Of a stretch of 64,000 nucleotides of DNA, positions 5,293 to 42,138 are shown piece by piece; within the stretch, counting starts at the first letter, position 1; each line of letters opens with the position of its first letter. The notes beneath the pieces were generated by a model that did not search any database, had not been told where the DNA came from, and worked only from the letters and a program-made list of their open reading frames with translations. Origin of the DNA: Verrucomicrobiota bacterium (GTDB lineage Bacteria > Verrucomicrobiota > Verrucomicrobiia > Limisphaerales > CAIMTB01); assembly GCA_963205105.1 (NCBI GenBank), contig CAUJJW010000274.1:2377-66376 (forward strand), given 5' to 3'. A program made the position numbers and the translations under genes.

Positions 5293-5495
5293 AGCGGAAC
5301 GATTCAGATGAGATCCATGGAGTTCACGCAAAGACGCTGAGACGCCAAGAAATGGGACGAACAAGATGAGCCGGGAGCACTCCGACACCCACACCTTTTG
5401 GTTCGCGATTCCTTCTGGGCGCGAGCCGCTTTCTCGGCCGCTCCGCCTTTGAGTCTTCGCGTCTTGGCGTGAGATGCAAAGGAAGCGTTCCGCTA
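5291..5495. mobile_element. MITE-like / ERIC-like non-autonomous element, copy 1 (~205 bp)
   Basis: Imperfect terminal inverted repeats (TAAGCGGAACGATTCAG ... GCGTTCCGCTA) and inner inverted 8-mer arrays (CACGCAAAGACGC ... GCGTCTTGGCGTGAG). A 42-bp core matches 48781-48822 at 40/42 positions. Confidence 0.7.
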
Positions 5496-8400
5496 CGCCC
5501 CCGCCGGGGCCGGCATCGGGGGCGCCATGTGCGGCGCCTCCGTGGTGGCCTGGCGCCGACTCGTCAGCAGCACATACATCGCCGGAATCACGAACAGCGT
5601 CAGCGCCCCCCCGAACACCAGCCCACCAATCACCGCGATGCCCATGGATACCCGGCTCTCCGAGCCCGCCCCCAGCGCCAAAGCAATCGGCAGAATCCCA
5701 AGAATCGTCGCCAGGGTGGTCATCAGGATCGGACGCAACCGAGCCGTCGCCGCTTCCTGAACCGCCGCCAGGGCGCTGCCCACACCCGCTTCACGCCGTT
5801 GATTGGCGAATTCGACGATGAGAATGCCGTTCTTGGTCACCAAACCGATCAGCATGATTAACCCGATCTGCGAAAAGACATTCAGGGTCTGCCCAAACCA
5901 CGACAACGCCCACAGCGCCCCCGCCAGGGCCAGCGGCACGGTCAGCAGAATCACCAAGGGGTCCATGAAGCTCTCGAACTGCGCCGCCAGCACCAGGTAG
6001 ATCAACACCAGCGCCAGCAGAAAGACGTACCCCAGGGAGGATGAACTCTCGACGAAGTCCAGCGCCGCACCCGTCAGCGACGTGGTGAACCGATCGTCCA
6101 GGGTGGTCTTGGCCACTTCGCGCAACGCCGTAATCCCGTCTCCCATCGTCTTACCCCGCGCCAGTGTCCCCGAGATCGTCGCGGAACTGTAGCGGTTGTA
6201 CCGGTAGAGTTCCGGAGGCGAACTGCTCTCGGACATCGTCACCAGGTTGTCGAGCTGCACCATCTCACCCCCCGCCGCCGGCACCGCGATCCCGGTCAAA
6301 TCACCCGGCCTCGACCGGAATTGCCGGGTCAACTGACCGATCACGTCGTACTGCTTGTCGTGAAGAATGAAGTACCCGAACCGTTGCCCGCTCAGGGATG
6401 CCTGAAGGGTCTGGGCAATGTCCAACGCGGTCACGCCGAGCGTCTGTGCCTTGTCCCGATCCAGCGAAACGCGAACCTCCGGCTTGCTGAATTTCAGGTC
6501 GCTGTCCACGAAGCTGAACGCAGGGCTCTTCCTCGCCTCTTCCAGGAATTTGGGAAGAACTTCCTGCAGGGTGCTGAGGTCGGGCGCCTGAATCACGAAC
6601 TGCACACCGCTCTGACCCGAACGTCGTTCACCAATGCTCGCCTCCTGCGTCACATTGACCCGCGCACCGGTCAGTTCGCGCTGAAGACTCTGCAAGTCCG
6701 CAGCGATCTCCTGCTGGGTCCGGTCCCGCAGCTGTTTGTCGGGCAGAAACACACGCACAAAACCTGAGTTGATCGCCCCCTGCACCCCCTGCGCACCTCC
6801 CGATCCCGGCACCTGGGTCATCATCAGCCTTGCTTCCGGCACTCGGTCCGCCGCCGCCTTCGCCAGGTCATCGATGAAGTTCTGCATGTAATCGTAACTC
6901 ACCCCCTCGGCGGCCGTCGCCCTCAGCCACAATCGCGCCCGATCCTCCAGCGGTGACAGTTCTCGTGGCAGTTGACCCAGAAAGAACTGAATCGCGACAG
7001 CTGCCACCGCCAAAACCCCCACCGCCAGCCATCGCATCCGCAGAAAGTTCGCCAACCCCCTCGCATACCCGGATTCCATCCCGGCAAAGAACGGCTCCGT
7101 CTTCCGGAAGAGCCAGCCCTGCCCCGCATGGGCCTTCAGCATGCGAGAACTCAGCATCGGCGTCAGCGTCAGCGCCACCACCGCCGAGATCAGCACCGCC
7201 CCCGCAATGGTCACCCCGAATTCCCGGAACAACCGGCCCGACAACCCGCCCATGAACAACAACGGCAGAAACACCACCGCCAGCGTGATGGTCGTCGACA
7301 CCACCGCCGTGAAAATCTCCTTGGTGCCTTCGATGCCCGCCGTCATGGGGGCCATCCCGCCTTCCACCTTCTTGTAGATGTTCTCCAGCACGACGATCGC
7401 GTCATCCACCACCAGTCCGATCGCCAGCACGATCCCCAACAGGGTCAGTGTGTTGCTCGAGAACCCGGCCGCCGCCATGATCGCGAACGTCCCCACAATC
7501 GACACCGGAATCGCGATCACCGGAATCAACGTGGTCCGCCATTCACGCAGGAAGGCAAACACCACCAGCACCACCAGGCCGAAGGCGATGAAGATCGTTT
7601 CTGTCACCTCCAGGAGTGAGCGACGCACATAGGCCGTGTTGTCATAAGCCACTTCCAGGGAAATGTCCGCCGGCAGTTCCTGCCGGATTCGGTCCAGCCG
7701 CCGCATGATTTCGTCGACGATCTCAATCTGGTTCGCGCCCGGTTGCGGCCGGAAATACAGGCCCGCAATCGGACGTCCGTCCACCTTGAGAGCTCCACGT
7801 TCATTCTGCGGACCAAGCTCCGCGTAACCCACGTCCCGGAAGCGCACGATCCGATCGCCCTCCCGCTTCACAATCATCGCGTTGAAATCGGACGGCGTGT
7901 TCAGCCGCGACATCGTCTTCACCGGAAGTTCCACCGACTCACCCTCGATCCGGCCCGAAGGAAGCTCGATGTTCTCCCGCGCCAACGCCCGACGCACATC
8001 CATCGGCGACAGCCCATAGGCCGACAGTTTCTCCGGGTCCATCCACAGCCGCATCGCGTAGCGCTTTTCCGCCGGCTGATCCACCGACGCGATCCCTGGA
8101 ACGGTCTGGAGGCGTTCCCGCAACGAGTCGGCGAATGCCGACAATTCCAATTGGGGACGGCGCTCACTGCGCAAAGCGAGACCCAGAATCGGGCTCGAAT
8201 CCGCGAAGGCTTTGTTGAGCACGGGAGGATTGGAGTCCGGCGGAAGATTCCGGACCGCCCGGCTCAATTGGTCGCGGACATCACTGGCGGCGGTGTCCAG
8301 GTCGGTATCGAGGGTGAACTCGACGGTGATCTGGCTCACGCCCTCGCGGCTGGTGGAGGTGAGAGTGCGAATGCCGGCGACGGTGTTCACCGCCTCCTCA

Positions 8401-8600
8401 ATGGGTTCGGTGATCTGCGCCTGAACCACTTCCGCCGCCGCTCCCGGATAGGTCGTGGCGATGGAAATGGTCGGTGGATCCACCGCCGGATATTCCCGCA
8501 CGCCCAACCGCGACAGGGACAACGCCCCGAAGATCGTGATCAGGAGAGAGATCACCACGGTCAGGACCGGCCGCCGTACACTCGTTTCAGCAAGGCTCAT
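5493..8600 (-). CDS. RND efflux transporter permease subunit (AcrB/AcrD/AcrF family)
   Basis: About 1035 aa. Starts SVRRPVLTVV and has GVREYP, proton-relay GLVVDDAIVVLEN, TKNGILIVEFA and RLRPILMTT. Start taken at MSLAETS. Confidence 0.95.
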   Translation of the reverse strand: MSLAETSVRRPVLTVVISLLITIFGALSLSRLGVREYPAVDPPTISIATTYPGAAAEVVQAQITEPIEEAVNTVAGIRTLTSTSREGVSQITVEFTLDTDLDTAASDVRDQLSRAVRNLPPDSNPPVLNKAFADSSPILGLALRSERRPQLELSAFADSLRERLQTVPGIASVDQPAEKRYAMRLWMDPEKLSAYGLSPMDVRRALARENIELPSGRIEGESVELPVKTMSRLNTPSDFNAMIVKREGDRIVRFRDVGYAELGPQNERGALKVDGRPIAGLYFRPQPGANQIEIVDEIMRRLDRIRQELPADISLEVAYDNTAYVRRSLLEVTETIFIAFGLVVLVVFAFLREWRTTLIPVIAIPVSIVGTFAIMAAAGFSSNTLTLLGIVLAIGLVVDDAIVVLENIYKKVEGGMAPMTAGIEGTKEIFTAVVSTTITLAVVFLPLLFMGGLSGRLFREFGVTIAGAVLISAVVALTLTPMLSSRMLKAHAGQGWLFRKTEPFFAGMESGYARGLANFLRMRWLAVGVLAVAAVAIQFFLGQLPRELSPLEDRARLWLRATAAEGVSYDYMQNFIDDLAKAAADRVPEARLMMTQVPGSGGAQGVQGAINSGFVRVFLPDKQLRDRTQQEIAADLQSLQRELTGARVNVTQEASIGERRSGQSGVQFVIQAPDLSTLQEVLPKFLEEARKSPAFSFVDSDLKFSKPEVRVSLDRDKAQTLGVTALDIAQTLQASLSGQRFGYFILHDKQYDVIGQLTRQFRSRPGDLTGIAVPAAGGEMVQLDNLVTMSESSSPPELYRYNRYSSATISGTLARGKTMGDGITALREVAKTTLDDRFTTSLTGAALDFVESSSSLGYVFLLALVLIYLVLAAQFESFMDPLVILLTVPLALAGALWALSWFGQTLNVFSQIGLIMLIGLVTKNGILIVEFANQRREAGVGSALAAVQEAATARLRPILMTTLATILGILPIALALGAGSESRVSMGIAVIGGLVFGGALTLFVIPAMYVLLTSRRQATTEAPHMAPPMPAPAGA

Positions 8601-8622: not shown

Positions 8623-9819
8623 TCAGCGCAACGTAGTACCCGCCCCATCGGCGGCCCCCCCGCCGGGCGCGGTTCCACCACTTCCCACCGCAGCGACAGG
8701 CGGACTTTCACGCCCCTTTTCCCGGGCCATGCCGCTCGAATCGTCTCTTCCCACGGTGGTGAACACCGGCTCCACCGCCAACCCGACCCGCATCTGCTGC
8801 AATCCCGAGGTGATCACCACATCGCCGACTTTCAGCCCCGAAAGCACCTGAACCATCGTCTCCGTCCGCGTTCCGGTCTCCACCACCCGCCGCACCACCT
8901 TGCCTTCGGAGGCCACGAACACGTTGCGGTCGGTCACCCCCGGAACCACTGCCACCGACGGCACCAGGATCGCCTCCTCCAGCCGGGAGAGCGTGATCTC
9001 CACGCTCGCGAAAGTCCCCGGCAACAACCGACCCTCCGGGTTCGGACAAATCGCGCGGACCAGAAGGGTTCGGGTGCTGGCATCAATGCGGGGATCGGTC
9101 GCCTGAACCTGACCGGTGAACTTGCGTTCGCCCCCGGCCACCGTGAAGGCCACCGGACTGCCCACTCCCACCTTGCCCGCATAGCGCTCGGGCACCGAGA
9201 AATCGACCTTCAGATGATCCAAACGCTGCAAGGTGGCGATCCGTGTCGAAGCGTTCACGAAGGCGCCCTCACTGACAAAGCGAAGCCCGACGACCCCGTC
9301 AAATGGGGCCCGTATCTCGGTCTTGCCGATCTGGGCCTGCATCAACTCGATCTCGGCCTCCTGGACCGCCACCTCGTTCAGAACGGCATCGTATTCGTCC
9401 TGGTTCGCGATGCCGTCCTTGAAGAGTTGCTCGATCCGCACCTCCCGCCGTTTGGCCAGTTCACGCCGGCTTGTCGCCCGGGCGAGGGTCGCCTTGAGGT
9501 CGGCATCGTTCAGTTTGACCAGGAGATCGCCTTTTTTGACACGGCTCCCTTCGGTAAAGGGAATGGCAACGATCTTGCCATTGATCTCGGCCTGCAATTC
9601 CACGCCTTCCTCAGCCCGCAATGTGCCCGTGGAGACCACCGTCTCTAGGAACGGCTCGGGGGCAACCACCACCGCCGACACCTTCAATGGCGCGACGGGT
9701 TTGGTGGAACCCCCTCCACCCTTGGCCGCAGCCGCCGGTTTGGATCGGCTCTGCGACAGCCACCAGCCGCCGCCAGCCAGGATTCCCAGGATCACCACCC
9801 ACTTGACGATGTACTTCAT
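8623..9819 (-). CDS. RND efflux periplasmic adaptor (membrane fusion protein)
   Basis: N-terminal TM, lipoyl-like G.IV.I.F.EG..VKKGDLLVKL, TEIRAPFDGVVG and DPRIDASTRT. Adjacent to the RND gene. Confidence 0.93.
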   Translation of the reverse strand: MKYIVKWVVILGILAGGGWWLSQSRSKPAAAAKGGGGSTKPVAPLKVSAVVVAPEPFLETVVSTGTLRAEEGVELQAEINGKIVAIPFTEGSRVKKGDLLVKLNDADLKATLARATSRRELAKRREVRIEQLFKDGIANQDEYDAVLNEVAVQEAEIELMQAQIGKTEIRAPFDGVVGLRFVSEGAFVNASTRIATLQRLDHLKVDFSVPERYAGKVGVGSPVAFTVAGGERKFTGQVQATDPRIDASTRTLLVRAICPNPEGRLLPGTFASVEITLSRLEEAILVPSVAVVPGVTDRNVFVASEGKVVRRVVETGTRTETMVQVLSGLKVGDVVITSGLQQMRVGLAVEPVFTTVGRDDSSGMAREKGRESPPVAAVGSGGTAPGGGAADGAGTTLR

Positions 9820-9853: not shown

Positions 9854-11632
9854 TCAATGCGTGTCGAAGATCGCCTGGTAGGCCTTCACCTTCGCCCGGA
9901 TCGCCGACAGTTCGTCGGTCGTGGGCTTGGCTGGGTCCTTGGCCGGAGGCAGCGCGCCCAATTTGAGCAGAGAAGCCATTAAGAGCAAACGGGCCTTGGT
10001 CGCGGTCAGGTTGTTGCCTTCGATGATCAAGTCTTCCTCGTTGCGCCGCATAAAACCCTGGGGATTCCCACGGTTCACTTTCACCACCGGAAACCCGGTC
10101 AGTGCCGCGAGCCGCAACGAATCCTCCACCGGCGCCGTGAGTCCCCCGCCGGTCACGCCTTCCTGAACAAACCCCGCCAGGGGTTCTTCCTTCAGGTTCG
10201 CCTCCACCCGGGCCATCACATCGACTTCGGTTTCCCCTGACGCGAAGGGGTCCGTGTCCCGCCAGCGGGAGGCCTTTACGATGCCGACAAAAGGCATCGC
10301 CTCCGGCCGCAGCGTCCCATCCGGCTCCTTCACCAACACTTCCACCGTTTGAATCCCCGCACCCTCCCGTTTCACCCCGGTCACTTTCGCAGGCAACGCC
10401 GTGACCCGGACATCCGAGAGGTAGGTGTGCTTCCGGTTGGGAATGAAGGTGACCACCGTGTCGTAACCCACGGCACCCAGGATGCCGCCGAAGCCGCCAC
10501 TCGCCACATAGCCACCCGGGCGAGCGTCGCCCTTCTGCACTTCCCGCCCTGAGAACACCACCTGATCGACGATCAACACGCCACCCAGACGGTTCCGGCC
10601 CGCATCGTCCGCCCATTTCTTGGAGAGAATGTACTGCACGCCATGGACGATGTTGCCATCGCCGTCCGCGCTGATGTAACCGCGTGCCCGCTGGGCACTG
10701 TGACACACCAACGGGTACGTGGTGTCGATCAGCAGATGGAGCCAGTAGGTGGTTTCCTCCACGTTCGGACTGCCTTCCAGCCAGACACCTCCAGCGTACT
10801 CACCGCTCGCCATGGCCTTCTGGATCATCATCGTCGCCAAAGCCAAACGCCCCCGTGGCGCATCGGCCCGATGCTCCCCGTAGCGGAAGAAATCCTTCCC
10901 TCTCGTCTCCGGAGGAATGTCGCCGGTCCCATGGTCCGTGCGTTTCGACGCCGACAGCCCCTTGGTGTAGCCACCCGAAGGAGCCGCCCGATAGAAATCG
11001 AAATCCGCCAGGCCCAGAATCTTCCCGCCATTGCGCTCGATCTCTTCCACAATGCGCGAGGCATCGGGATAGAACGTCTGACGGGATTGTTCGAAAGGTG
11101 CCCCCTTGTAAGCGCCCGCTTCGTCCCACGGCTTGCCATCCTTCTGAACCGCCATGTAGGGCAGCGGGTACAGACCATCTTCAGGCTTCAGCTGAATGGC
11201 GTAAACGGGTCGGTCTGTCGCTGCCACCCAGTTGGTCCGGAACGCGCCGCTCGCGTCCAGATAACCGTCCGGTGGACCGTACAGTTCCGCGACATCCGCT
11301 TCCAACGGGTGCGCTGAAAACGCCTCGACGTACACCGTCGCCGGCGCCGCCAGACGTTGCGGATAGAGCCGATCGAACGGCAGCGGCTTGCCGTCCGCTC
11401 CCTTGAGAAGCTCCAAGCCGCGCTCGCGGCGTGCCTTGTTGCTGGTGATCAGCGCATAGGAGTTCTGAATCGTCGCCGTCGGCCCCGAGAAGATGGCGAT
11501 CTTCGGTTTCGGACCGGTTGCCGCCGGCTTCGACTCAGCTGCGCCAGCCACCGATGCGGTGAAGGAGAGGGCGGCCACCGCCGCCGCCCACAACCATTGA
11601 CCAGTTCTCTCCGGCGCCGCTCGCCTGTCCAT
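9854..11632 (-). CDS. Exported, divergent asparaginase-fold protein (~590 aa, large insertion)
   Basis: Signal-like N-terminus (MDRRAA...WLWAAAVAALSFTASVAGA). It has IFSGPTATIQNS where GGTI is expected, WLEGSPNVEET where HGTDT is expected, VQKGDA (conserved Lys) and a C-terminal NNLTATKARLLLMASL. The ORF-track extension to 11866 overlaps the upstream gene and a repeat. Confidence 0.72.
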   Translation of the reverse strand: MDRRAAPERTGQWLWAAAVAALSFTASVAGAAESKPAATGPKPKIAIFSGPTATIQNSYALITSNKARRERGLELLKGADGKPLPFDRLYPQRLAAPATVYVEAFSAHPLEADVAELYGPPDGYLDASGAFRTNWVAATDRPVYAIQLKPEDGLYPLPYMAVQKDGKPWDEAGAYKGAPFEQSRQTFYPDASRIVEEIERNGGKILGLADFDFYRAAPSGGYTKGLSASKRTDHGTGDIPPETRGKDFFRYGEHRADAPRGRLALATMMIQKAMASGEYAGGVWLEGSPNVEETTYWLHLLIDTTYPLVCHSAQRARGYISADGDGNIVHGVQYILSKKWADDAGRNRLGGVLIVDQVVFSGREVQKGDARPGGYVASGGFGGILGAVGYDTVVTFIPNRKHTYLSDVRVTALPAKVTGVKREGAGIQTVEVLVKEPDGTLRPEAMPFVGIVKASRWRDTDPFASGETEVDVMARVEANLKEEPLAGFVQEGVTGGGLTAPVEDSLRLAALTGFPVVKVNRGNPQGFMRRNEEDLIIEGNNLTATKARLLLMASLLKLGALPPAKDPAKPTTDELSAIRAKVKAYQAIFDTH

Positions 11633-11643
11633 GAACCGGTCGT

Positions 11644-11699
11644 CCGTAGCGGCGGGCGTCTCGCCTGCCGTAGAGGGGGGCGTCTCGCCCCCCGGAATC
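11644..11699. repeat. 56-bp REP-like palindromic element, copy 1
   Basis: The reverse complement matches 52725-52780 with 3 mismatches. Internal hairpin GGGGGGCGTCTCGCCCCCC plus a second GGCGGGCGTCTCGCCTGCC unit. Confidence 0.8.
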
Positions 11700-17869: not shown

Positions 17870-17873
17870 GGAA

Positions 17874-19016: not shown

Positions 19017-19025
19017 GGTCGTGTT

Positions 19026-20093: not shown

Positions 20094-20099
20094 GGTGTG

Positions 20100-21692: not shown

Positions 21693-21759
21693 GCGCATAC
21701 AGGGAAATTCCGCCACCGTATTCACCGATCTCCGACCGAGCCACAGGGACCCGCGCCGA

Positions 21760-23376: not shown

Positions 23377-23588
23377 CCAGGCCAGGAGTTTCCCTCCCGC
23401 TTTTCCCGGATGAAACGGGGTTGACCCGCCAACCGCACCGACGCCCAACCATCCGCCAACGCCACCACGGGACCGACCGGGACGATGAACGCCGTGCTTT
23501 CGGGATCCCGCCCGTTGGTTCCGGCGGGTCGGCCGGACTGCCGGAGCGGTATGGGTCCTCGGGGATCTTCGGGGGGCGGGGCGCATGG

Positions 23589-25181: not shown

Positions 25182-25186
25182 GAGGG

Positions 25187-28413: not shown

Positions 28414-28435
28414 AGGGGGGTCAAGTGGCTGAGTT

Positions 28436-30031: not shown

Positions 30032-30039
30032 GGGGTTTG

Positions 30040-31572: not shown

Positions 31573-31628
31573 TGGAATGTTGCCGTCCCGCATCATATGT
31601 CCTTGGGATTCGCCACTAGGCCGCCGAC

Positions 31629-33161: not shown

Positions 33162-33162
33162 G

Positions 33163-35844
33163 TCAGAAGGTCCTTCCAAGGGTGAACTCGAAGTTGATCG
33201 GCTGGCGCACGCCGACCATCATTCCGTTGTTGGCGCCGCGAACGTAGAACTGCTCGTCGGTCAGGTTGTTGACATCGAACTTCGCGCTCCAGGCTCCCTT
33301 GGCGTAGAAGAGTGAAGCGTTGAGAACCGTGGCCGATGGAAGATTCCAGATCAGAGTACGGTCAGCAGCGAATCCACCTTGGTGCGACACACCAAACGCG
33401 CCGCCCAGACCCGAGCTGTGATTGTAGGTGACGAAGAGGTTCAGGATTTTGTCCGGAATACCAGGAACCTCGGAGTACACGTCGCCGCCCAGGATGCGGA
33501 TCTGGGGAACACCACCCCAACCGAACGCTTCGGCAGGCGCGATGATTTCGCCGGTCGCCGGATCCCGCACGTCCGAGAAACCAGCGTACCGCCCATTGAT
33601 GCGCACGGTTTGGTCGGAGCCATCCAGGTACTCGGCTTTGCTGAATGAGCCGGAAGCGACAATGCTCACGCTGGGGATCGGCACATAGCGCAGTTCGACC
33701 TCGATGCCTCGGCTCTCGGTCTTGTCCACGGAGGCCTCGGCATCGCCTTGGGCGAACGAGATGCGGTTCTGTTCGAACACCGCGAAGGTTGCGAAGAGCT
33801 TGTTCTCCAAAAGCTGGGTCTTCACACCCACTTCCATGATTTGCGATTGCCCATAGGCACCGCCGCGCCAGGTGGCAGGGGCAATCGACGCATCCGAGGT
33901 GTCCACGATGAGCGCGGCTTGCTGGGCCATCGTGAAGTAGGGACGGATGTTCAGCGGGAGAGCGTAGCTCACACTCGCATTCCACGAGAGCGCCGAGTCA
34001 CTGCCGCGGGTGGTCGACGGACTGGTGGTGAGACGACTGTCCAAGGCGTCGGTCGTGCCAATGTTCGCGGCGTTCTTCCCAGCAAACACGCCCGCAGGTT
34101 GGGTATGATCGCCGTCCACATAGTCAAACCGGCCGCCCAGGATCAGGTTCACCTTCTCGAAGAAGGTCTGGTCCGTGAGCAAACCGACGCCCGCCTCGAT
34201 GTACTGGGAATCGTTGATCTGGGTGATGGCACTTCCATCCAGTCCCCGCTTCTCGAGGAAGCTGTAGAAGGTGTCGTTCGGGGTGAAGTTCCCGTTCGAG
34301 CCACCCATCAGATCGCGGCGCTGATCGAAGTCCGAATTGGTGGTGTTCTCGCGGAAGGTGTCGGTGTACCGAATGTTCGGTGAGGCCAGGATCTGACCTT
34401 CCCACCATTCCGGCAGGTAGTCCGCCTTGTGGGCTGCCGTGAATTTCTCCTCAAACAGTCGTGGCTTTTGGATCTGCGAGAAGGGATTCCGGCCGTCCTT
34501 GATCTGATTGTAGAAGTGATAATAGAGCTGGTTCTTGAGCGTGAGTTCCTCGTTCGAGTCGTTGATGACGTCGAAGAAGAAGTCATACACGTCCGCGTCG
34601 TAGTAATCTTCGCCCAAAGTCTTGGAGGTGTCCGCGTCCACCAGACGGAAGGAGGAGTAGTCCAGCTGCCAGGGTTCCGGCAGTCCGTTCAGTGCGGACG
34701 TTCCGGTGCCAATCGGCGCACCGGTCACGATGTTGACGAGGGGACCATTCGGCCGACCGTTGGCGTCCACGCTTTGTTTCTTCAGATTATTGACCTGATC
34801 GGGCGTGGAAATCGTCCCGAAGCTGACGAAGATCGGGTTGTAGGTGGCCGTCGCGGGACGGGACCCGAACAGTTCCCGTTCCGAGATCCGGCCGTTGCCG
34901 TCCGCGTCGAGCTGGTTGGCGAACCCGCCGCTCCAGTACTTCCCCTGGGTGAACAGTTCCTCGGTCACGCGGTTGATACCGCCGTTGAGGCCGCCCTTGG
35001 AGAACTGGGCCACTCCGCCGAATTCGGCGCGCCAGCTGTCGGTCAGCTCCGCCGAGACGGCGATCTGGTTGACGAAGTGTTTGTCGAAAGCGGTCTCGTA
35101 ATACGAACCCGAGTCTTCGAGGTAGCCGTAATAGTAAAAGCCGGCCTTGCGATCCCCGGGTAGACCCTTGATCGGGCCGCCGAAGTCAAAGGTCGCCACG
35201 CGCCGGTCCCAGGACCCGACACTGAGCGAGACCTTGCCCTCCGCCTTCTCCATGTATTTCCCGGTCACACTTCGGGAGGTCTTCGGATTGAAGTTCAGGT
35301 ACCCACCGATTCGGCCGCCGCCGAAGATCGGCGACGCGGGGCCGCGCACGACTTCGATGCTGTCGAAGGCGGTGAAGATGGTGCGGTAATTGCCCTGCGG
35401 ATCGGGCTTCTTCATGCCGCGGAAGTAATAGTCGCCCGCCTGGTTGCGGACGTTGATGCCGCCTTGCAGGCCGAAGCGGAAATTGGTGTAGGTGCTGGGA
35501 GCAACGCGGTAGAGGTCCTCCACGTTTTCCACGCCCGCCGCGTTCAGCAGTTCCGCGCTGAGCACCGTGACCGACCGCGGTGTCTCCAGCAGAGACTTGC
35601 CAAAACCGATGACGCTTTCGACCGGCGCCGTGGGCAGGATGAACGTCGGGTCGGTCCCGGCCGTCGACTCCAGCGCCTCGACCTCACCCGAGGGATCTTC
35701 GTTCATCGTGCCGGATGCCGGCAGCGACGATTGGGCCGGAGGCGTGCTGCTGGCCGCGGGAGTCTGGGACAACGCCCGGGTGGTGGTTGCGTCCGCGAGG
35801 GCGCCGAGGGCGACTAGGGTTCCGAGTGACTTAGGTAGGCTCAT
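33163..35844 (-). CDS. TonB-dependent receptor (893 aa)
   Basis: Signal peptide, plug-like LLETPRSVTVLSAELL...VEVVRGPASPIFG..GG.LNF..K, many amphipathic beta-strand patterns, C-terminal FDVNNLTDEQFY and a terminal Phe (..GRTF). Confidence 0.92.
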   Translation of the reverse strand: MSLPKSLGTLVALGALADATTTRALSQTPAASSTPPAQSSLPASGTMNEDPSGEVEALESTAGTDPTFILPTAPVESVIGFGKSLLETPRSVTVLSAELLNAAGVENVEDLYRVAPSTYTNFRFGLQGGINVRNQAGDYYFRGMKKPDPQGNYRTIFTAFDSIEVVRGPASPIFGGGRIGGYLNFNPKTSRSVTGKYMEKAEGKVSLSVGSWDRRVATFDFGGPIKGLPGDRKAGFYYYGYLEDSGSYYETAFDKHFVNQIAVSAELTDSWRAEFGGVAQFSKGGLNGGINRVTEELFTQGKYWSGGFANQLDADGNGRISERELFGSRPATATYNPIFVSFGTISTPDQVNNLKKQSVDANGRPNGPLVNIVTGAPIGTGTSALNGLPEPWQLDYSSFRLVDADTSKTLGEDYYDADVYDFFFDVINDSNEELTLKNQLYYHFYNQIKDGRNPFSQIQKPRLFEEKFTAAHKADYLPEWWEGQILASPNIRYTDTFRENTTNSDFDQRRDLMGGSNGNFTPNDTFYSFLEKRGLDGSAITQINDSQYIEAGVGLLTDQTFFEKVNLILGGRFDYVDGDHTQPAGVFAGKNAANIGTTDALDSRLTTSPSTTRGSDSALSWNASVSYALPLNIRPYFTMAQQAALIVDTSDASIAPATWRGGAYGQSQIMEVGVKTQLLENKLFATFAVFEQNRISFAQGDAEASVDKTESRGIEVELRYVPIPSVSIVASGSFSKAEYLDGSDQTVRINGRYAGFSDVRDPATGEIIAPAEAFGWGGVPQIRILGGDVYSEVPGIPDKILNLFVTYNHSSGLGGAFGVSHQGGFAADRTLIWNLPSATVLNASLFYAKGAWSAKFDVNNLTDEQFYVRGANNGMMVGVRQPINFEFTLGRTF

Positions 35845-35947
35845 GTTTGTGAGTCAGTCTGACAGTGTGGCGGGGGAGTGCCACGGAGTGGGTTCGATCG
35901 GCTGGGCACGTGGGGGTTGCCCGCCGCCTTCGGGAACGACTTCCCAA

Positions 35948-35963
35948 AGCACCGCTCATGCCA
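35948..35963 (-). promoter_or_regulatory. Putative sigma-54 (-24/-12) promoter for the TBDR-amidase arm
   Basis: The minus strand reads (C)TGGCATG-AGCG-GTGCT: correct GG-N10-GC spacing with 2 deviations from TGGCACG-N4-TTGCW. About 105 bp upstream of the TBDR ATG. Confidence 0.55.
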
Positions 35964-36353
35964 GCACTTCACCGGACCCATGAGGGCACCAACACCCGGC
36001 AGAGGCCATGAACCGACATGATGCCACCAGACCCTGTCTGTTCATTCTGCCGACGCACCCGCCCCCTCCAGGTCCATCCCTTCACGCCGGGGCCATCGAA
36101 TGAACCAATCCCATCCGGTGGCATGACTGGTGCTCATGAGTGGAGGCCGACCTGCTTCGCTTGCTTTGTCTCTTATTCGCCAATTTCTGGTACGCCTTTG
36201 CCCATGCTGACCAGATTGCTTCACCGGGGGAGGCTATTCCAAGGAGGGCATGGGTCAGGGAGGGTGGATAGCGGTCGTTCGTGCTGGGGTTCGCATACTT
36301 GAATAGAGGCACATCCCTGTCGGCGGCCTCATTCATGACCTCGACCCACCGAG

Positions 36354-36369
36354 TGGCACGTCGCTTGCT
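36354..36369 (+). promoter_or_regulatory. Putative sigma-54 (-24/-12) promoter for the DUF3450-exb-tonB operon
   Basis: TGGCACG-TCGC-TTGCT is a perfect match to the TGGCACG-N4-TTGCW consensus, 150 bp upstream of the ATG at 36520. Confidence 0.75.
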
Positions 36370-36519
36370 TGGGTGATGTGGTGGGGAATCGGGAGTTCCC
36401 ACAACCCGACCGGACCCATCGATCGGTCGTTACGCACCCCCTAGGCGGTCTGACTGCCGCTCCCGAATCCCCACCCTGCAACGCCACTGGTTGAATATTG
36501 TTCCTCCATCGTCGAACCC

Positions 36520-37299
36520 ATGAAGTCATTCACCTCAAGACTCCCCGCCCTGATCGCCACCGGATTTCTGGTGACCGCGATCACCCCATCGGTTACCAGC
36601 GCAACACCTCTGGAGGATCTCCGAAATCTCTGGAAGGAGTGGTCCAAGGTCAAAGGCACCATCTCGGAGGAAAAGAACAACTGGGCCCGCGAACAACAGT
36701 CCATTGCGGACTCCATCGCGGTTTCACGCCAGGAGGTGGAACTGCTGACCTCCCGGCTCAAGGAACTGAACAGCGGCACCACCGGGACCGAGAAGCAGCG
36801 CTCCGAGCTTCTCGACAAGATCGCGGCCTCCAAGACCAGCCTCGCCGTGTTCGCCGAGGCGATCGATAAGTACGAAACCAAGATGCGCGAACTGGTTCCG
36901 GTGATCCCACCCCAGTTGCGCACCGAGCTGTCCGCCCTACTGCAACGCCTGCCCGCCGAGGGCAAACCCACCGCGCTGCCGGTGTCGCAAAGAATTCAGA
37001 CGGTCATCGCCTTCCTCGCCCAGCTCGACAAGTTCAATGCCGGACCGACGTTGATCAGCGAAATCAAGGAGGTGGAACCCGGCAAGTCGCTGGAAGTCAA
37101 AACGCTCTACTTCGGCCTGGGTGCCGCCTACTTCACGGACGCAGCGGCCACCTATGCGGGCCACGGCTATCCGACGCTGGAAGGCTGGAAATGGACCTCG
37201 GTCGACGCGGCCACCGCCAAGCACATCGCGGAGGCGATCTCGATCTATCAAAACGAAAAGCAGCCCGCCTTTGTCTCCCTGCCCGCCCAAATCCGTTGA
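36520..37299 (+). CDS. DUF3450-family periplasmic coiled-coil protein (TtpB-like)
   Basis: Signal peptide, long heptad-rich helix, and a VKTLYFGLGAAYF beta motif followed by GWKW. First gene of the exb/tonB cluster. Confidence 0.75.
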   Translation: MKSFTSRLPALIATGFLVTAITPSVTSATPLEDLRNLWKEWSKVKGTISEEKNNWAREQQSIADSIAVSRQEVELLTSRLKELNSGTTGTEKQRSELLDKIAASKTSLAVFAEAIDKYETKMRELVPVIPPQLRTELSALLQRLPAEGKPTALPVSQRIQTVIAFLAQLDKFNAGPTLISEIKEVEPGKSLEVKTLYFGLGAAYFTDAAATYAGHGYPTLEGWKWTSVDAATAKHIAEAISIYQNEKQPAFVSLPAQIR

Positions 37300-37338
37300 T
37301 TCACGGCCCGCCGCTCCATTCCCAAACTTCTTCTCCCC

Positions 37339-38823
37339 ATGATCATGTCATCGAAACCCTCGCGCGTTCTTCTCACGCTGTCCCTCCTGGTGGCGCTGAG
37401 CCCCCTGTCCCGCCTCGGCGCCCAGGACATTTCCGGCAACACCACGGCTGCCCAAACTCAGCTCGTTCAAGCGCAGCAGGAGTTGTCCAAGCTGCGCGAC
37501 GAGATTACCGCCGCGAAAATCCCGCTCTCCACCGCGCTGCGGGAGGCCGAAACCGAACTCTTCGCCAAACGCCGCGAATCGGAACGCCTGCAACGCTTGG
37601 CCGACAACCGCAACGTTGACCTTCGCAACCTGGAGAACGAACAGAAGCTTCGCGCCGAGGAAGTCGACTACCTGTCGACGCTCCTCACCGACTACCTCAG
37701 CCGCCTCAATTCGACGGTGGACGCCTCCGAAATCCAGATCGTGGGCGAGTCGCTGACCAAGATGCTCAACGTCGGGGAAACGCCGGACATTGCGCGGGAG
37801 CAGATCTTCAAGACCAAACTGGGCTCCATCGACATGGGGTTTGATCGGATCAAGAACCTGCTCGGTGGCGCCAAGTTTGACGGCAAAGCCATCCTTCCCG
37901 GCGGCAGTCTCCAGGATGGAACCTTCCTTCTTCTTGGGCCGTTGTCTTATTTCGCCAGCAAGGACGGAAAAGTCGCGGGACTCGTCGAACGCGGCGCCGC
38001 CATGCACCCCAAGGTGACGGTGTTCTCCGAAAAGGAAATTCCTGCCATCGCAGCCCTGGCCAGCAAGGGCGAGGGACTGCTCTCCATCGACACCACCATG
38101 GGCAAGGCCAAGGCCATCGCCACCAGCAAGGAGTCGATTAGTGAACACATCAAGAAGGGTGGCATCTGGATGATTCCGATCATCGGTTTCGGCATCGCGG
38201 CGCTCTGCATGGCGCTCTTCAAGTTCGGCGAAATCAGCACCGTGAAAGCCCTGCCCGCCAACGTCCTGGAGAAGGTGCTCGCTCTCGTCAGCCAGGGAAA
38301 CATCCCGGAGGCGGCCAAAATGATCCGCACCCATCCAGGACCGGCGGCCAAGATGCTGTCCGAGGCAGTCAAGAATCTCCACCTGCCCAAGGAAGTCGTC
38401 GAAGAAATGATGTTCGAGACGATGCTCGAGACCCAGCCCAAGCTGGAGCGAGGTCTTTCCTTCATCTCGGTGACCGCTTCGGTGGCTCCGCTGCTCGGTC
38501 TGCTGGGCACCGTCACCGGCATGATGACCACCTTCAACCTCATCACCCTCTTCGGTACCGGCGATGCGAAGTCGCTCTCGTCCGGAATTTCCGAGGCACT
38601 CATCACCACCGAGTACGGCCTGATTGTCGCCATCCCTGCCCTCTTGCTCTACGGCTACCTATCCCGCCGAGTGAACGGCATGATGGGCGATTTGGAGCAG
38701 ATTTCCATCGCGTTCAGCAACGGCGTCTCGGCCATTCGCACGCCGGCTAGCGAACCCACCCTGAACCCGGAATCCGGCAAATCGTCTCCGCCGATGGGTT
38801 CGGGCCTGCCCTCCCCCGCGTGA
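37339..38823 (+). CDS. Long MotA/TolQ/ExbB proton-channel protein with periplasmic N-terminal domain (TtpC-like)
   Basis: Signal peptide and coiled coil, then KGGIWMIPI, APLLGLLGTVTGM and GISEALITTEYGLIVAIP. Confidence 0.88.
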   Translation: MIMSSKPSRVLLTLSLLVALSPLSRLGAQDISGNTTAAQTQLVQAQQELSKLRDEITAAKIPLSTALREAETELFAKRRESERLQRLADNRNVDLRNLENEQKLRAEEVDYLSTLLTDYLSRLNSTVDASEIQIVGESLTKMLNVGETPDIAREQIFKTKLGSIDMGFDRIKNLLGGAKFDGKAILPGGSLQDGTFLLLGPLSYFASKDGKVAGLVERGAAMHPKVTVFSEKEIPAIAALASKGEGLLSIDTTMGKAKAIATSKESISEHIKKGGIWMIPIIGFGIAALCMALFKFGEISTVKALPANVLEKVLALVSQGNIPEAAKMIRTHPGPAAKMLSEAVKNLHLPKEVVEEMMFETMLETQPKLERGLSFISVTASVAPLLGLLGTVTGMMTTFNLITLFGTGDAKSLSSGISEALITTEYGLIVAIPALLLYGYLSRRVNGMMGDLEQISIAFSNGVSAIRTPASEPTLNPESGKSSPPMGSGLPSPA

Positions 38824-38874
38824 ACGTGCTCCGAGAGTTCCCGCAACTCCAACTCCTCAGTCCTAAGCTCCCTT

Positions 38875-39588
38875 ATGCAAGCTGACTTCACCAAAGAGGT
38901 CCTGAAACTCTGGGCGGATGGCGGTTGGTGCATGGTGCCGCTCGCGTTTCAAGCCCTCGCCATTTACTACATCTCCTTCGCGCTCTTCTTCGAAATCCGC
39001 GGTCATCCCGCACTCCGAACGAGCGAAGACGAGTGGGGCCATTGGATCGATCGTCCCGACGACGCCAAAGGCGAGATCGCGCAGATCTTCCGTTTCACAC
39101 AGCAAGGTGTCACCTCCCTGGACACCATCCGCCAGCGGTTCGTGGAGGTCACCAAGGCTTACATTCCCGCCTTGGACCGTCGGATTCGGTTCGTTTTCAT
39201 GATTATTGGCACGGCTCCACTGACGGGCCTGCTCGGAACCGTCACCGGCATGTTGGCGACCTTCGACGGCATCGCCGGTGGTGCCGGCGGAGCGGACACC
39301 GTCGATGTCGTGGCTGGCGGCATCTCTGAGGCTTTGATCACCACGGAAACAGGTCTGGTCATCGCCATCCCTGCTTACGTCGTTCTCGCTCGCATCCGTC
39401 GGTTGCGGGATCAGCTCGAACTGTTCCTGCGCCGGGCGGAAACAATGACACTTCGGCGTTTTGCCCGCGCGCTGCCGGGCGATCCCGATGCCGCAGCTCT
39501 GCCCCCTCACGGGACACCTCCCCATTCGGGACCGACCACTCCCGACGACTTGCCACTACCCATCCCATCCATTCAGCCCGCCACCTAA
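38875..39588 (+). CDS. exbB: ExbB (MotA/TolQ/ExbB family)
   Basis: GGWCMVPL, APLTGLLGTVTGM and GISEALITTETGLVIAIP. Confidence 0.9.
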   Translation: MQADFTKEVLKLWADGGWCMVPLAFQALAIYYISFALFFEIRGHPALRTSEDEWGHWIDRPDDAKGEIAQIFRFTQQGVTSLDTIRQRFVEVTKAYIPALDRRIRFVFMIIGTAPLTGLLGTVTGMLATFDGIAGGAGGADTVDVVAGGISEALITTETGLVIAIPAYVVLARIRRLRDQLELFLRRAETMTLRRFARALPGDPDAAALPPHGTPPHSGPTTPDDLPLPIPSIQPAT

Positions 39589-39627
39589 CCCCACTTCCAG
39601 CAATCTCCCGAACCCGAATCCCCGCTT

Positions 39628-40038
39628 ATGGCCAGACGCTCCCTCTCCCGTGCCATCCAAGTCAGTGACGAGATCAACATCTCGCCCTTGATCGACATGG
39701 TCTTCATTCTGCTCATCTTCTTCATCGTCACCACGGTCTTCGTCGAGGAGACCGGGGTGAATGTGAACAAGCCCCAGGCCAGCGCGGCCATCCCGCTGGA
39801 AGCCAACAGCATCCTCCTCGCCATCACCGACCAGGGCAAGGTGGTGTACGGCGGTCGCGAGGTCGGCATCGCTGGTGTCCGTTCCATCGTCAAACGCCTG
39901 GTTCAGGGCAATGCCGACATGCCCACCATCGTTCAGGCGGACAAAGTCGTGCCTACCGAGCTATTGGTGAAGGTCATCGACGAAGCCAAGCTGGGTGGTG
40001 CCAAGGCCGTGAGCATCTCCACCGAGGGCAACCGCTAG
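39628..40038 (+). CDS. exbD: Biopolymer transporter ExbD
   Basis: [22 protein letters not shown] (conserved Asp in the TM), VQADK and [10 protein letters not shown]. Confidence 0.93.
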
Positions 40039-40053
40039 TCCCCATCACGCACC

Positions 40054-40740
40054 ATGGCATCCCCTTCTCCAACGCGTCTTGCTCCTTTCCGGGTACCGTC
40101 CCGGAGCCGACGGCGACTTGCGCCCACGGTCGCCATGCTCGTTTGCGGCGCCGCAACGTTCCTCCTGCTACCGTTCACCACCCTCATCACCGGAGCAGCC
40201 AGCAACAAGAGGGACCTCACGAGCATCGACCTTAGCCTGCCTCCTCCTCCTCCTCCTCCTCCGGAGATCGACAAACCACCGGAGGAACCACCGCCGCAGG
40301 AGGACACTCCCCCGCCCGACTCCCCCAACAACCAACTGTCACTCGCGCAGATGGATGTGGCTCTCAACGTCGGCTTCGGTGACGCCATGGCCGGTGGCTT
40401 TTCGGTGGAAGGCTTCGCCACCCAGTCCGAGGCCACCACCGTCGCCGACCTCGGGATCTTCGACATCAAGGACCTCGACAAACCCCCGACCCGCACCCGC
40501 ACGGTGACCCCGGTTTACCCCGCGGAACTCAAGCGGGCCCGGGTTCAAGGCAACGTGGTCCTGATGATCATCATCGACCAGAACGGCCGCGTCTCAGTCG
40601 ACAAGGTTGTCGAATCCAGCGCCCGTGAGTTCGAACAATCTGCCATCACGGCGGCTGAACAATGCATCTTCGAGCCTCCCATGAAAGGCGGCCAAGCCGT
40701 TCGCGCCCGTTACCGCATGCAAGTTCCCTTCCGTCTCTGA
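40054..40740 (+). CDS. tonB: Energy transducer TonB
   Basis: N-terminal TM, Pro-rich spacer, and a C-terminal PVYP..LKRARVQGNV...IDQNGRV...FEPPMKGG TonB domain. Confidence 0.9.
   Translation: MASPSPTRLAPFRVPSRSRRRLAPTVAMLVCGAATFLLLPFTTLITGAASNKRDLTSIDLSLPPPPPPPPEIDKPPEEPPPQEDTPPPDSPNNQLSLAQMDVALNVGFGDAMAGGFSVEGFATQSEATTVADLGIFDIKDLDKPPTRTRTVTPVYPAELKRARVQGNVVLMIIIDQNGRVSVDKVVESSAREFEQSAITAAEQCIFEPPMKGGQAVRARYRMQVPFRL
40240..40260 (+). repeat. (CCT)7 trinucleotide microsatellite encoding TonB poly-Pro
   Basis: Seven perfect CCT codons in a row, read directly. Confidence 0.85.
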
Positions 40741-40785
40741 TTTGATCTCATCCCCTGATTTCCAGCTCATCCCGTCTCCCATCCC

Positions 40786-42138
40786 ATGAAACTCAAAATC
40801 TTCGCCTCCAGTCTCGCGCTCGCCTTACTCCCCGCCTCGGGAGCTGACCCGTTGTTCGAAAATTCCTGGAATAATCCCCAGTTCGTCGCCCGTTTCGTCG
40901 GAACCTACGGGTTCGACACCGCCTTGAACCCGGGAATCACCCAGGAGGAGAAGCTGGTGTTCGACAAGTTGGTCCCTCTGATCCAATCCCAGCCCGCCCA
41001 GGCGATAACCGCCCTGAAAGCAGCGATCACCCCCACCAGCAGTGCGGCCCTCGATTTCACCCTGGGCAACCTCTACTTCCAGTCGAAGTCATTTCCCGAA
41101 GCCACCGCCGCCTACCAGGGTGCGCTCAAAAAATTCCCGAACTTCCTCCGGGTTCACAAGAACCTGGGTCGTCTCTTCGTGCAGCAGGGCGATGCCAAGT
41201 CCGCCTTGGCCCACCTCTTGCGCGTGATTGAACTCGGCGGCGCCGAAGGCGACATCTACGGGCTGGTCGGCTACTGCTACCTCCAGGGAGGAGCCGTCAC
41301 CAGCGCCCTCGACGCCTACCGATCCGCCCTCCTGTTCGCTCCCAAGAGCCGGGATTGGCGCATGGGCAAAATCCAGTGTCTGGTGAACCTGGGCGTGCAC
41401 AAAGAAGCCGCCGCCATGCTGGACGAACTCATCACCGAAAAACCCGACGACGCCGGTCTTTGGCTGCTGCAAGCCAACGCCTACGTGGCTTCGGGAAATT
41501 CGGCGGACGCCGCCGTCAATCTGGAGCTGGTGCGTCAGATGGGGAAAGCGACCCCGATCAGCCTTGCGCTCCTCGGCGACATTTACATCAACGCCAACCA
41601 ACCCGACCTCGCTCTCGCCGCCTATCAGGACCTGCTCAAGGGCGAACAAATCGACCAGGAACGAGCCCTCCGTGCCGCCCGCATTCTGGCCTCCCGCGGT
41701 GCTTGGACCGAAGCCGACGCCTACCTCAAGGAACTGAACCAACGCCTGAGCGCGAAACTGCCCGCCTCCGGTCAAAGCGAAGTGGCGTCCCTGCTGGCCA
41801 AAGTTGCTCTCGCCCGTGGTGAGGACGACAAGGCTGCCGCCATGCTCACCAAGGTGCTGGAAACCGACCCGCTCAACGGCAGGGCGCTCCTGCTTCTGGC
41901 CGATTATCACTGGAAAAAGAATGACCGCGAGCGAGCCGACCTCTACTACACTCGCGCCGCGACCGTGGAAGATGTGCGGGTCGAGGCGCTGCTCCAGCAC
42001 GCCCGCATGAATGTCGCCCTCAAGGAGTTTGCGGCCGCCACCAAGCTCCTCGCCCGGGCCCAGTCCATCAAACCCCAGGCCCACGTGGGTGATTTCCTCG
42101 CCAAAGTGGAAGCAGCAGCCCGTGCCACCCGGTTCTGA
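40786..42138 (+). CDS. Tetratricopeptide-repeat protein (TtpD-like), exported
   Basis: Signal peptide and multiple TPR-like helical repeats (LGNLYF..., LGRLFVQQG..., LLGDIYIN...). Last gene of the tonB cluster. Confidence 0.85.
   Translation: MKLKIFASSLALALLPASGADPLFENSWNNPQFVARFVGTYGFDTALNPGITQEEKLVFDKLVPLIQSQPAQAITALKAAITPTSSAALDFTLGNLYFQSKSFPEATAAYQGALKKFPNFLRVHKNLGRLFVQQGDAKSALAHLLRVIELGGAEGDIYGLVGYCYLQGGAVTSALDAYRSALLFAPKSRDWRMGKIQCLVNLGVHKEAAAMLDELITEKPDDAGLWLLQANAYVASGNSADAAVNLELVRQMGKATPISLALLGDIYINANQPDLALAAYQDLLKGEQIDQERALRAARILASRGAWTEADAYLKELNQRLSAKLPASGQSEVASLLAKVALARGEDDKAAAMLTKVLETDPLNGRALLLLADYHWKKNDRERADLYYTRAATVEDVRVEALLQHARMNVALKEFAAATKLLARAQSIKPQAHVGDFLAKVEAAARATRF

Follow-up and report, generated by a model that had tools for sequence, protein, structure and literature searches.

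A putative TonB-dependent amide utilisation locus with fifteen predicted exported C-N hydrolases in a Verrucomicrobiota genome, and its relatives in other phyla

What does a bacterium gain from fifteen genes for hydrolases of C-N bonds placed behind a single gene for a TonB-dependent receptor (TBDR)? This question is raised by a 36-kb cluster, made of a receptor operon and a divergent TonB operon, in a 64,000-nucleotide stretch of DNA from a Verrucomicrobiota bacterium (hereafter the window; positions 2,377 to 66,376 of contig CAUJJW010000274.1, assembly GCA_963205105.1). Examination of this cluster and of its relatives leads us to regard it as probably a TonB-dependent amide utilisation locus, laid out like a polysaccharide utilisation locus (PUL) but built for C-N bonds. 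The enzyme set recurs behind import channels in three phyla, so that it looks like a widespread, undescribed system for harvesting nitrogen from amides.

Gene content was read from Pfam scans of the proteins of the window. The 18 genes of the receptor operon (5493-35844) are co-directional, all on the minus strand, in the order TBDR, AmiT6, AmiT5, AmiT4, AmiT3, AmiS5, AmiS4, AmiS3, AmiS2, Asn1, Asn2, AmiS1, FmdA, AmiT2, AmiT1, AsnX, membrane-fusion protein (MFP) and resistance-nodulation-division (RND) permease. With the most plausible start codons, the gaps between them range from a 4-nt overlap to about 212 nt. Behind the receptor are encoded eleven amidase signature (AS) amidases, two type-II-asparaginase-like proteins, one FmdA/AmdA-family amidase and AsnX, that is, fifteen enzymes which all belong to PF01425, PF00710/PF17763 or PF03069. 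A preliminary description, made from the letters of the same DNA, had listed one TBDR with eleven AS amidases, three asparaginase-fold proteins and one FmdA-type amidase in one direction, an MFP/RND pair downstream, export signals on all enzymes and a complete Exb/TonB operon transcribed divergently. The Pfam matches bear out this inventory gene by gene, and the export signals and the TonB operon were found as described.

The operon begins with a receptor of 893 amino acids (33163-35844), in which only a Plug domain (PF07715) is matched; it has no CarboxypepD_reg domain and no SusD gene lies downstream. Searches of this TBDR and of SusD against solved structures returned generic relatives only. 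One nucleotide separates the stop of the receptor gene from AmiT6. The pump genes close the operon at its other end, the MFP (8623-9819) being recognised by its HlyD_D23 and HlyD_3 domains and the AcrB-type RND permease (5493-8600) by PF00873 (976 bits).

All eleven AS amidases match PF01425 with 245-357 bits (cut-off 27) and contain the Gly/Ser-rich signature G(G/S)S(S/A)G. The alignment shows the Lys / cis-Ser / nucleophile Ser triad to be retained in 11/11, with Lys in the context xKD/xKA, cis-Ser in GSS and the nucleophile in G[GFS]S[IV]. Two clades can be distinguished, with 25-31% identity between them. Clade A (46-59% identical inside) contains the enzymes with a signal of the twin-arginine translocation (Tat) type: AmiT6 (31629-33161, 357 bits, N-terminal SCRREFLARV), AmiT5 (30040-31596, 347 bits, VNRRHFVAAG), AmiT4 (28436-30031, 314 bits, DSRRAFIARA), AmiT3 (26857-28413, 332 bits, MNRRSLFKPM), AmiT2 (13425-15002, 331 bits, VSRRRFIGAA) and AmiT1 (11788-13380, 313 bits, ISRRDLFRRR). 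Clade a (41-62% inside) groups the Sec-type enzymes, namely the peptide-amidase-like AmiS5 (25187-26860, 245 bits), whose start overlaps the AmiT3 stop by 4 nt, AmiS4 (23589-25181, 262 bits), AmiS3 (21760-23376, 250 bits, with an uncertain start codon, GTG 23376 or TTG 23337), AmiS2 (20100-21698, 300 bits) and AmiS1 (16289-17869, 253 bits). Three adjacent Sec-type amidases (21760-26860) lack the usual Arg after the nucleophile and read GGSIVIP, GGSVQNP and, for AmiS5, SGSIVNP; in the other eight AS amidases this stretch is GGSIRxP or something close to it.

Among solved structures, clade A comes nearest to GatA, metagenomic urethanases (UMG-SP), biuret hydrolase, the nylon cyclic-dimer hydrolase NylA and FAAH, and clade a to the peptide amidase Pam and 5EWQ; for AmiS4 the closest structures are peptide amidase 1M21/5AC3, and 5EWQ. 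These relatives are too distant and too varied for homology to narrow the substrate class. The FmdA/AmdA-family amidase (15054-16142) scores 111 bits against PF03069 (cut-off 27) and 70 against the formamidase equivalog NF045496 (cut-off 500), and every amidase, FmdA and AsnX fall below all NCBIfam cut-offs.

All fifteen enzymes are predicted to be exported. A twin-arginine motif of the [ST]RRxF[LIV] type followed by a moderately hydrophobic stretch opens the six clade A amidases and Asn2 (N-terminus MNRRSALRQALLGGAVLAG). The five clade a amidases, Asn1, FmdA and AsnX have hydrophobic N-termini of the Sec type, as in the signals of AmiS5 (ALALAAAIGMAL), AmiS4 (MNACPLLLRLIALLVLTCAASKAHA) and FmdA (MTLLRLILVLAATLVSSGAA) and in the hydrophobic stretch of AmiS3 (LAILMALPGMLV). 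TatC is encoded in the genome. The Tat motif of clade A is kept in orthologues from Cyclobacterium, Hydrocarboniphaga and Opitutaceae, which represent three phyla; its presence in Cyclobacterium, of another phylum and base composition, rules out that it is an artefact of G+C-rich upstream sequence.

The two asparaginase-like proteins, Asn1 (19026-20093) and Asn2 (17874-19016), both match PF00710 and PF17763, and they score 363 and 297 against TIGR00520 (cut-off 314), Asn2 thus being just under it. In place of the HGTDT motif of type II asparaginases, Asn1 reads HGTGT, Asn2 HGTNT and AsnX EGSPN, so that the Asp is lost in all three. The replacements are consistent among orthologues, which read HGT[G/S/A]T for the Asn1 type and HGTNT for the Asn2 type (Opitutales, Puniceicoccaceae, Hydrocarboniphaga). 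In E. coli AnsB, the Asp of HGTDT helps to hold the alpha-amino group of the substrate. We therefore infer that free L-asparagine is not the substrate of Asn1, Asn2 or AsnX.

AsnX itself (9854-11632, 592 amino acids) gives weak Pfam asparaginase matches and a TIGR00520 score of 55. It aligns with Asn1/Asn2 by hhalign with a probability of 99.2 and retains the Lys (REVQKGDA), within a protein that has an insertion of about 200 amino acids. Its AlphaFold model (pLDDT 84, pTM 0.80) has a core that covers type II asparaginases over their whole length, with a TM-score of about 0.8 relative to the target; the query-normalised score is lowered by the more than 200 residues that AsnX has in addition. 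Across phyla its homologues share 55-60% identity, and these comparisons make AsnX the gene that best marks the locus type.

AsnX also occurs without amidase neighbours, in Binatia, Deltaproteobacteria/Myxococcota, Syntrophobacteria and Chloroflexota. Of 56 such loci, 22 have, on the same strand and a median of 9 nt behind AsnX, the alpha gene (PF02979, E 6.5e-62) and then the beta gene of a Co-type nitrile hydratase. Nitrile hydratases produce amides, and their operons normally carry an amidase that hydrolyses them; the position of AsnX, at the place usually taken by this amidase, supports the prediction that it is an amide hydrolase. Such AsnX proteins have no signal peptide, the frame opening about 10 codons before the conserved core, and every copy of the TBDR or SusC/SusD arrays has one, so that the exported form is, as far as the predicted signals tell, specific to importer-linked loci. 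No description of a nitrile hydratase partner with an asparaginase fold seems to exist. As a side observation, in L042, L046, L049, L051, L057, L060, L072 and other loci of this type AsnX lies at about 10001-11690 with nitrile hydratase next downstream, and the genes found upstream of it are a small cupin-like gene, ahcY, metK, rapZ, ptsN and rpoN.

The gene neighbourhoods of homologues of the receptor showed AS amidases directly behind the TBDR in 6 of 6 contexts tested, at TBDR identities of 79 to 34%. In the closest of them (L001) the entire arrangement returns, including the divergent TonB operon and the LysR gene. Opitutaceae EW11 (L002) has, in this order, ExbB-ExbD-ExbD-TonB-TPR, three small genes, two asparaginases, two amidases, the receptor and at least six further amidases. 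A TonB system adjoins the array in these two loci and in Hydrocarboniphaga too.

A scan for AsnX, with one genome per species, found it in 198 species, and the best 80 AsnX loci were classified by blastp against the proteins of the window. Cytophagia-type Bacteroidota (Cyclobacterium, Marinoscillum, Catalinimonas and metagenome-assembled genomes, MAGs) show an invariant order in 12/12 loci, SusC-SusD-A-A-A-A-FmdA-AsnX-a, with four Tat-type amidases, FmdA, AsnX and one Sec-type amidase and with no RND pump. Arrays were present at 8/9 loci of Opitutia, with up to 14 consecutive C-N hydrolase genes, and at 5/9 loci of Gammaproteobacteria (Nevskiales, Steroidobacteraceae and a bog MAG). In Hydrocarboniphaga, amidases and AsnX come first, and behind them lie MFP-RND, an extracytoplasmic function (ECF) sigma factor, FecR, an STN-domain TBDR, a second TBDR and the same TonB set as in the window, running from DUF3450 to TPR. 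The adjacency AsnX-MFP-RND was seen in Hydrocarboniphaga, Nevskia soli, a Puniceicoccaceae MAG and a Verrucomicrobiota MAG. These arrays are pure: apart from transport genes, there are essentially no other open reading frames between the C-N hydrolase genes, and no peptidase, glycoside hydrolase or inner-membrane importer was found between the classified genes.

By these comparisons the locus type is recurrent in several phyla (Verrucomicrobiota, Bacteroidota, Gammaproteobacteria). The analogy with PULs drawn in the preliminary description was well placed, as the Cytophagia enzyme set stands directly behind SusC/SusD in all 12 loci. Its remark that no described locus of this kind was known to its author agrees with our search, in which no description of a TBDR or SusC/SusD locus with multiple amidases was found in the searchable literature, but the arrangement is not unique to this genome.

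Some individual relatives have features of their own. In Hydrocarboniphaga daqingensis (L004), an AS amidase (positions 1-772) carries a fused lipocalin-like domain (PF13924); downstream of the RND pump there is a JmjC/cupin gene. In the complete genome of Cyclobacterium xiamenense ac3 (L096, 1877-5112), SusC is split into frames of 817 and 249 amino acids, which is either a pseudogene or a sequencing error; SusC is intact (1078 amino acids) in a related metagenomic contig. A JGI metagenome contig (L094, 5208-22718) carries ECF sigma, FecR and STN-TBDR genes and then twice a TBDR with two amidases, which suggests a modular unit of receptor plus amidases.

The TonB operon lies on the plus strand (36520-42138) and starts 675 nt from the receptor gene on the opposite strand. 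It encodes a TtpB-like DUF3450 protein (36520-37299; PF11932, 91 bits), a TtpC-like long MotA/ExbB-family protein of 494 amino acids with a coiled-coil N-terminus (37339-38823; PF01618, 110 bits), ExbB (38875-39588; PF01618), ExbD (39628-40038; PF02472), TonB with a proline-rich spacer (40054-40740; PF03544) and a TtpD-like TPR protein that is predicted to be exported (40786-42138; TPR families). The six-gene order of TonB2 type is thus complete with the expected domains (DUF3450, MotA_ExbB, MotA_ExbB, ExbD, TonB_C, TPR), and the TPR gene has the same position in L001, L002 and L004. A LysR-type regulator (42164-43207, plus strand; HTH_1 and LysR_substrate) follows; it occupies the same place in L001 and is a conserved neighbour and a possible local regulator.

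Promoters were scanned for with the sigma-54 consensus TGGCAC-N5-TTGCW (-24 GG / -12 GC). On the minus strand, a -24/-12 motif with two mismatches, TGGCATGAGCGGTGCT (35948-35963), lies 104 nt upstream of the TBDR start. On the plus strand, a perfect consensus, TGGCACGTCGCTTGCT (36354-36369), lies 151 nt upstream of the DUF3450 gene, which is preceded by a second, weaker site as well (36119-36134). The perfect site is one of 7 in the whole 8.2-Mb genome. It is aligned with TGGCATGCGGATTGCT in L001, whose otherwise poorly conserved intergenic region has three sigma-54-like sites at the corresponding positions. The motif facing the receptor has counterparts upstream of the TBDR in L001, L005 and L013, and sigma-54-like sites upstream of the receptor or of an amidase sub-operon also occur in L002, L005/L013, L015, L020 and L035; the background for such sites is 0.09 per kb. 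The genome encodes 16 enhancer-binding proteins, none of them on the contig of the window, and the activator would therefore act from elsewhere. The predicted sigma-54 promoters are compatible with a global nitrogen regulator and no proof of one. Simple scans for sigma-70 promoters and intrinsic terminators gave nothing over chance. Beside the Cyclobacterium locus no regulator was found, and only type-IX-secretion-related genes lie upstream.

A row of related genes may raise the suspicion of an assembly error. In an independent per-run assembly, a 37,095-nt contig spans positions 16500-36400 with 0 differences, and two contigs of another run likewise match this interval without difference; a related strain from a different wastewater study shows scattered base differences (58 over one 3.5-kb piece). 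Together with the 25-62% identity of the paralogues, whose visible divergence the preliminary description had already taken as an argument against it, the independent contig leads us to reject a misassembly of near-identical repeats.

A FastTree phylogeny of 104 amidases from loci of this type placed all Tat-type enzymes in a single clade (support 100), inside which subgroups with support of 97-100 mix Cyclobacterium/Marinoscillum, Hydrocarboniphaga and Opitutales. The clade A genes of the window belong to two subgroups that are expanded in the host lineage. Orthologous subgroups shared across phyla imply that the paralogues diverged before the locus spread, and the tree thus points to an old array that travels as a unit; a one-off tandem expansion in the host genome is rejected because the array, with its orthologous subgroups, recurs across phyla. 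The host genome is a MAG, and its rpoB is closest to MAGs labelled Verrucomicrobiales, Verrucomicrobiae and Limisphaerales, not to Opitutaceae. AsnX was found in 3 of 15 species of the host GTDB family and in 2 of 301 sampled genomes of the host order, a sparse distribution that makes the locus an accessory element in this lineage, where it was probably acquired horizontally.

The same genome has 25 PF01425 matches and 6 TBDRs with a Plug domain, the TBDR of the window being the sole member of its clade. Another contig (C275, 2500-8900) bears a second DUF3450-TtpC-ExbB-ExbD-TonB-TPR set, 29-60% identical to the first, that adjoins another TBDR. The remaining genes of the window are unrelated and include a sugar ABC transporter, a short-chain dehydrogenase, a hybrid histidine kinase, a P-type ATPase and SPFH proteins, among others. 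One open frame (49711-51345, minus strand) combines ECF-type sigma-70 regions 2 and 4 with two glyoxalase/bleomycin-resistance-like domains, and a beta-lactamase-family gene (51392-52606) adjoins it.

How such a locus might work can be proposed as follows. The TBDR would import amide-bearing organic compounds over the outer membrane with energy from the neighbouring TtpB/TtpC-ExbB-ExbD-TonB-TPR system. Once in the periplasm, these compounds would meet enzymes of three folds (six Tat-exported and five Sec-exported AS amidases, the two Asp-less asparaginase-like proteins, the FmdA-type enzyme and AsnX), which would cleave varied amides and release ammonia or amines. As no dedicated inner-membrane importer is encoded, assimilation of the ammonia or amines is ascribed to general systems. 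The MFP/RND pump would probably rid the periplasm of the acid left after de-amidation, or of toxic substrates. Both operons would be transcribed from the sigma-54 promoters by means of an enhancer-binding activator encoded elsewhere, most plausibly one under nitrogen control. The purity of the array fits a harvest of ammonia and not of carbon skeletons. The preliminary description had proposed that amides are imported and stripped of their nitrogen in the periplasm; the export signals, the link to the TBDR, the adjacency of the TonB system and the purity of the array speak for this course of events. Gene content, intact catalytic residues, export signals, synteny across phyla and promoter motifs are what the sequences show, and the substrate class, the nitrogen purpose and the role of the pump are the parts that we infer.

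Several observations weigh against this reading. No substrate can be named, as by sequence all fifteen enzymes fall short of the curated equivalogs. The ligands of TBDRs are usually scarce or large, whereas small amides, the substrates of several characterised relatives of these amidases, would pass through porins. The RND pump has no outer-membrane factor in the locus, the rest of the genome not having been searched for one. Two further arrays of Sec-type, peptide-amidase-like genes in the same genome (C299, 28600-39500, six genes; C212, 61200-66200, three genes) have no TBDR, RND or TonB genes beside them. As for regulation, another of the seven perfect sigma-54 sites lies upstream of flgB, so that sigma-54 also serves regulons unrelated to nitrogen; in the same genome glnA shows no convincing motif and the amt genes one weak site only, 810 nt before one amt; and no sigma-54 sites were seen in the Bacteroidota and Gammaproteobacteria loci, which use ECF sigma/FecR. 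None of the RNA runs searched contains the locus of the window.

Other explanations have to be weighed on the same evidence. RND pumps handle amphiphiles and the AsnX-MFP-RND adjacency is conserved, as would suit a system dedicated to N-acyl or fatty-acid amides of one hydrophobic class (for example lipoamino acids, primary fatty amides, lipopeptides or sphingolipid-like compounds), whose acyl chain the amidases would remove and the pump would export as an amphiphilic acid, the gain being an amine or amino acid or the removal of a bioactive lipid. The lipocalin-like fusion in one Hydrocarboniphaga amidase, the presence of FAAH among the solved relatives of clade A and the hydrocarbon- and surface-film-associated Nevskiales among the carriers point in the same direction. 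We nevertheless find this unlikely, since FmdA-type and asparaginase-fold enzymes are, as families, known for small polar amides, the Cytophagia version does without the pump, and GatA, urethanase, biuret hydrolase and peptide amidase are equally near solved relatives. The wastewater origin of the genome, which comes from biofilm, wastewater and activated-sludge metagenomes, raises the thought that the array was recently assembled under pollutant selection for degradation of man-made polyamide, polyurethane, acrylamide or polyacrylamide. Urethanases (UMG-SP) and NylA are the nearest PDB relatives of clade A, and a TBDR imports polyethylene glycol in sphingomonads (PMC11644497). The urethanase similarity is modest, however (E ~1e-44 to 1e-48), paralogues that are 25-62% identical and form cross-phylum subgroups mark the array as ancient, and arrays are also found in marine/saline Cyclobacterium, marine Cytophagia, freshwater/soil Opitutales and Nevskiales, which leaves this explanation with very little probability.

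Uptake of a siderophore or metal chelate, in which a peptide or hydroxamate chelate would be imported and its backbone cut by the amidases in the periplasm to free the metal, is suggested by the weak top matches of the TBDR in NCBIfam and PDB, which are siderophore receptors. A dedicated TonB system and the ECF sigma/FecR/STN-TBDR sets, as in Hydrocarboniphaga, are likewise typical of iron uptake. Yet the TBDR is below every curated siderophore or heme receptor cut-off of NCBIfam, far so for the siderophore receptor family TIGR01783 (102 bits against 223.5, in a match limited to the plug region); to handle a chelate, the arrays offer neither a reductase nor an ABC importer nor a periplasmic binding protein, the Cytophagia partner is a SusC/SusD pair, the promoters are of sigma-54 and not of Fur type, and no part in iron release is known for the asparaginase and FmdA folds, so that we hold such a role to be highly improbable. 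Finally, the RND efflux pump at the end of the operon, together with the beta-lactamase-family gene and the glyoxalase/bleomycin-resistance-like fusion elsewhere in the window, might indicate a battery for interference or defence, with amidases that inactivate antibiotics, toxins or signals in the periplasm, an RND pump that expels them and a TBDR only loosely connected. Against it stand the link to TBDR or SusC/SusD, which is the most conserved feature (6/6 and 12/12 contexts), the poor economy of importing a toxin in order to destroy it and the Cytophagia loci without a pump, and we give it the slimmest of chances. Because the importer link is conserved, the pump is absent in Cytophagia, the paralogues are old and parts for iron uptake are lacking, each of these explanations is less likely than the harvest of amide nitrogen.

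If the harvest of amide nitrogen is accepted, a broader proposal can be made, which we offer more tentatively. Amide nitrogen is the dominant form of high-molecular-weight dissolved organic nitrogen. Loci of this type may constitute unrecognised, cross-phylum nitrogen (amide) utilisation loci, in which a TBDR or SusC/SusD importer and periplasmic amidases of several folds strip amide nitrogen from compounds that Bacteroidota, Verrucomicrobiota and Gammaproteobacteria would otherwise not consume, with three uncharacterised subfamilies (the AS clade with Tat signals, the asparaginases that lack the Asp, and AsnX with its homologues) as their tools. If true, these genes would serve as a set of markers by which the scavenging of amide nitrogen could be recognised in soils, waters and wastewater, and would give a physiological role to many annotations as amidase family protein. 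The three subfamilies, some of them near enzymes of polyamide or polyurethane hydrolysis, would be of interest for biochemistry, and the idea could be put to a direct test in cultured carriers (Cyclobacterium, Hydrocarboniphaga, Nevskia soli, Opitutaceae isolates).

Among known systems, the single enzymes find counterparts in several places. E. coli AnsB and the glutaminase-asparaginase of Pseudomonas are periplasmic, and the Pseudomonas enzyme is reported to be sigma-54 dependent. The present locus resembles them in that ammonia would be freed in the periplasm before uptake, in the type II asparaginase fold and in its sigma-54 promoters. They are, however, encoded by single genes and act on free Asn or Gln, in contrast to an array of fifteen enzymes with its own importer, and none of the three asparaginase-fold types found here keeps the Asp of HGTDT. 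Among solved structures, the five Sec-type amidases are closest to Pam of Stenotrophomonas maltophilia (1M21/1M22, 5AC3; E ~1e-62, full length), which is likewise an exported member of the AS family and frees ammonia from an amide. The similarity is remote all the same: no family cut-off is reached, and in three of the five amidases the nucleophile is not followed by the Arg. We know of no TBDR array that includes Pam. Nitrile hydratase/amidase clusters are comparable through the signal-less AsnX homologues that take the usual amidase position in Binatia, Deltaproteobacteria and Chloroflexota; nitrile hydratase genes are missing from the window, whose AsnX has an export signal and sits among amidases.

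The transport side also has precedents. The Vibrio TonB2 system (ttpB-ttpC-exbB2-exbD2-tonB2-ttpD) equals the TonB operon of the window in gene order and domain content. It belongs to another phylum and serves several iron receptors, whereas the set described here stands head to head with one particular receptor operon. In the polyethylene glycol operon of sphingomonads, the TBDR PegB imports an organic compound that is neither a sugar nor a metal for a periplasmic polyethylene glycol dehydrogenase (PMC11644497); it differs in its oxidative chemistry on a polyether, its few enzymes and its lack of amidases.

The closest likeness in plan is to the PULs of Bacteroidota with SusC/SusD and to the TBDR-containing carbohydrate utilisation (CUT) loci of Xanthomonas, in which one TonB-dependent importer heads co-directional genes for exported hydrolases of many specificities. 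The Cytophagia version of the amidase set sits behind a true SusC/SusD pair, and some versions have ECF sigma/FecR/STN-TBDR control. Unlike these systems, the locus of the window has no carbohydrate-active enzymes, its hydrolases being C-N amidohydrolases of three folds, and no inner-membrane sugar importer, and an RND pump is attached to it. Strictly defined, it falls outside the PULs, as its receptor is not of SusC type (no CarboxypepD_reg, no SusD). Utilisation loci of the TonB-dependent kind are well understood where glycans, iron chelates or vitamins are concerned; an equivalent for amide-bound organic nitrogen was not found in the literature. The TonB-dependent utilisation locus is thus known as a kind, and what is new here is the amide chemistry and the enzyme set.

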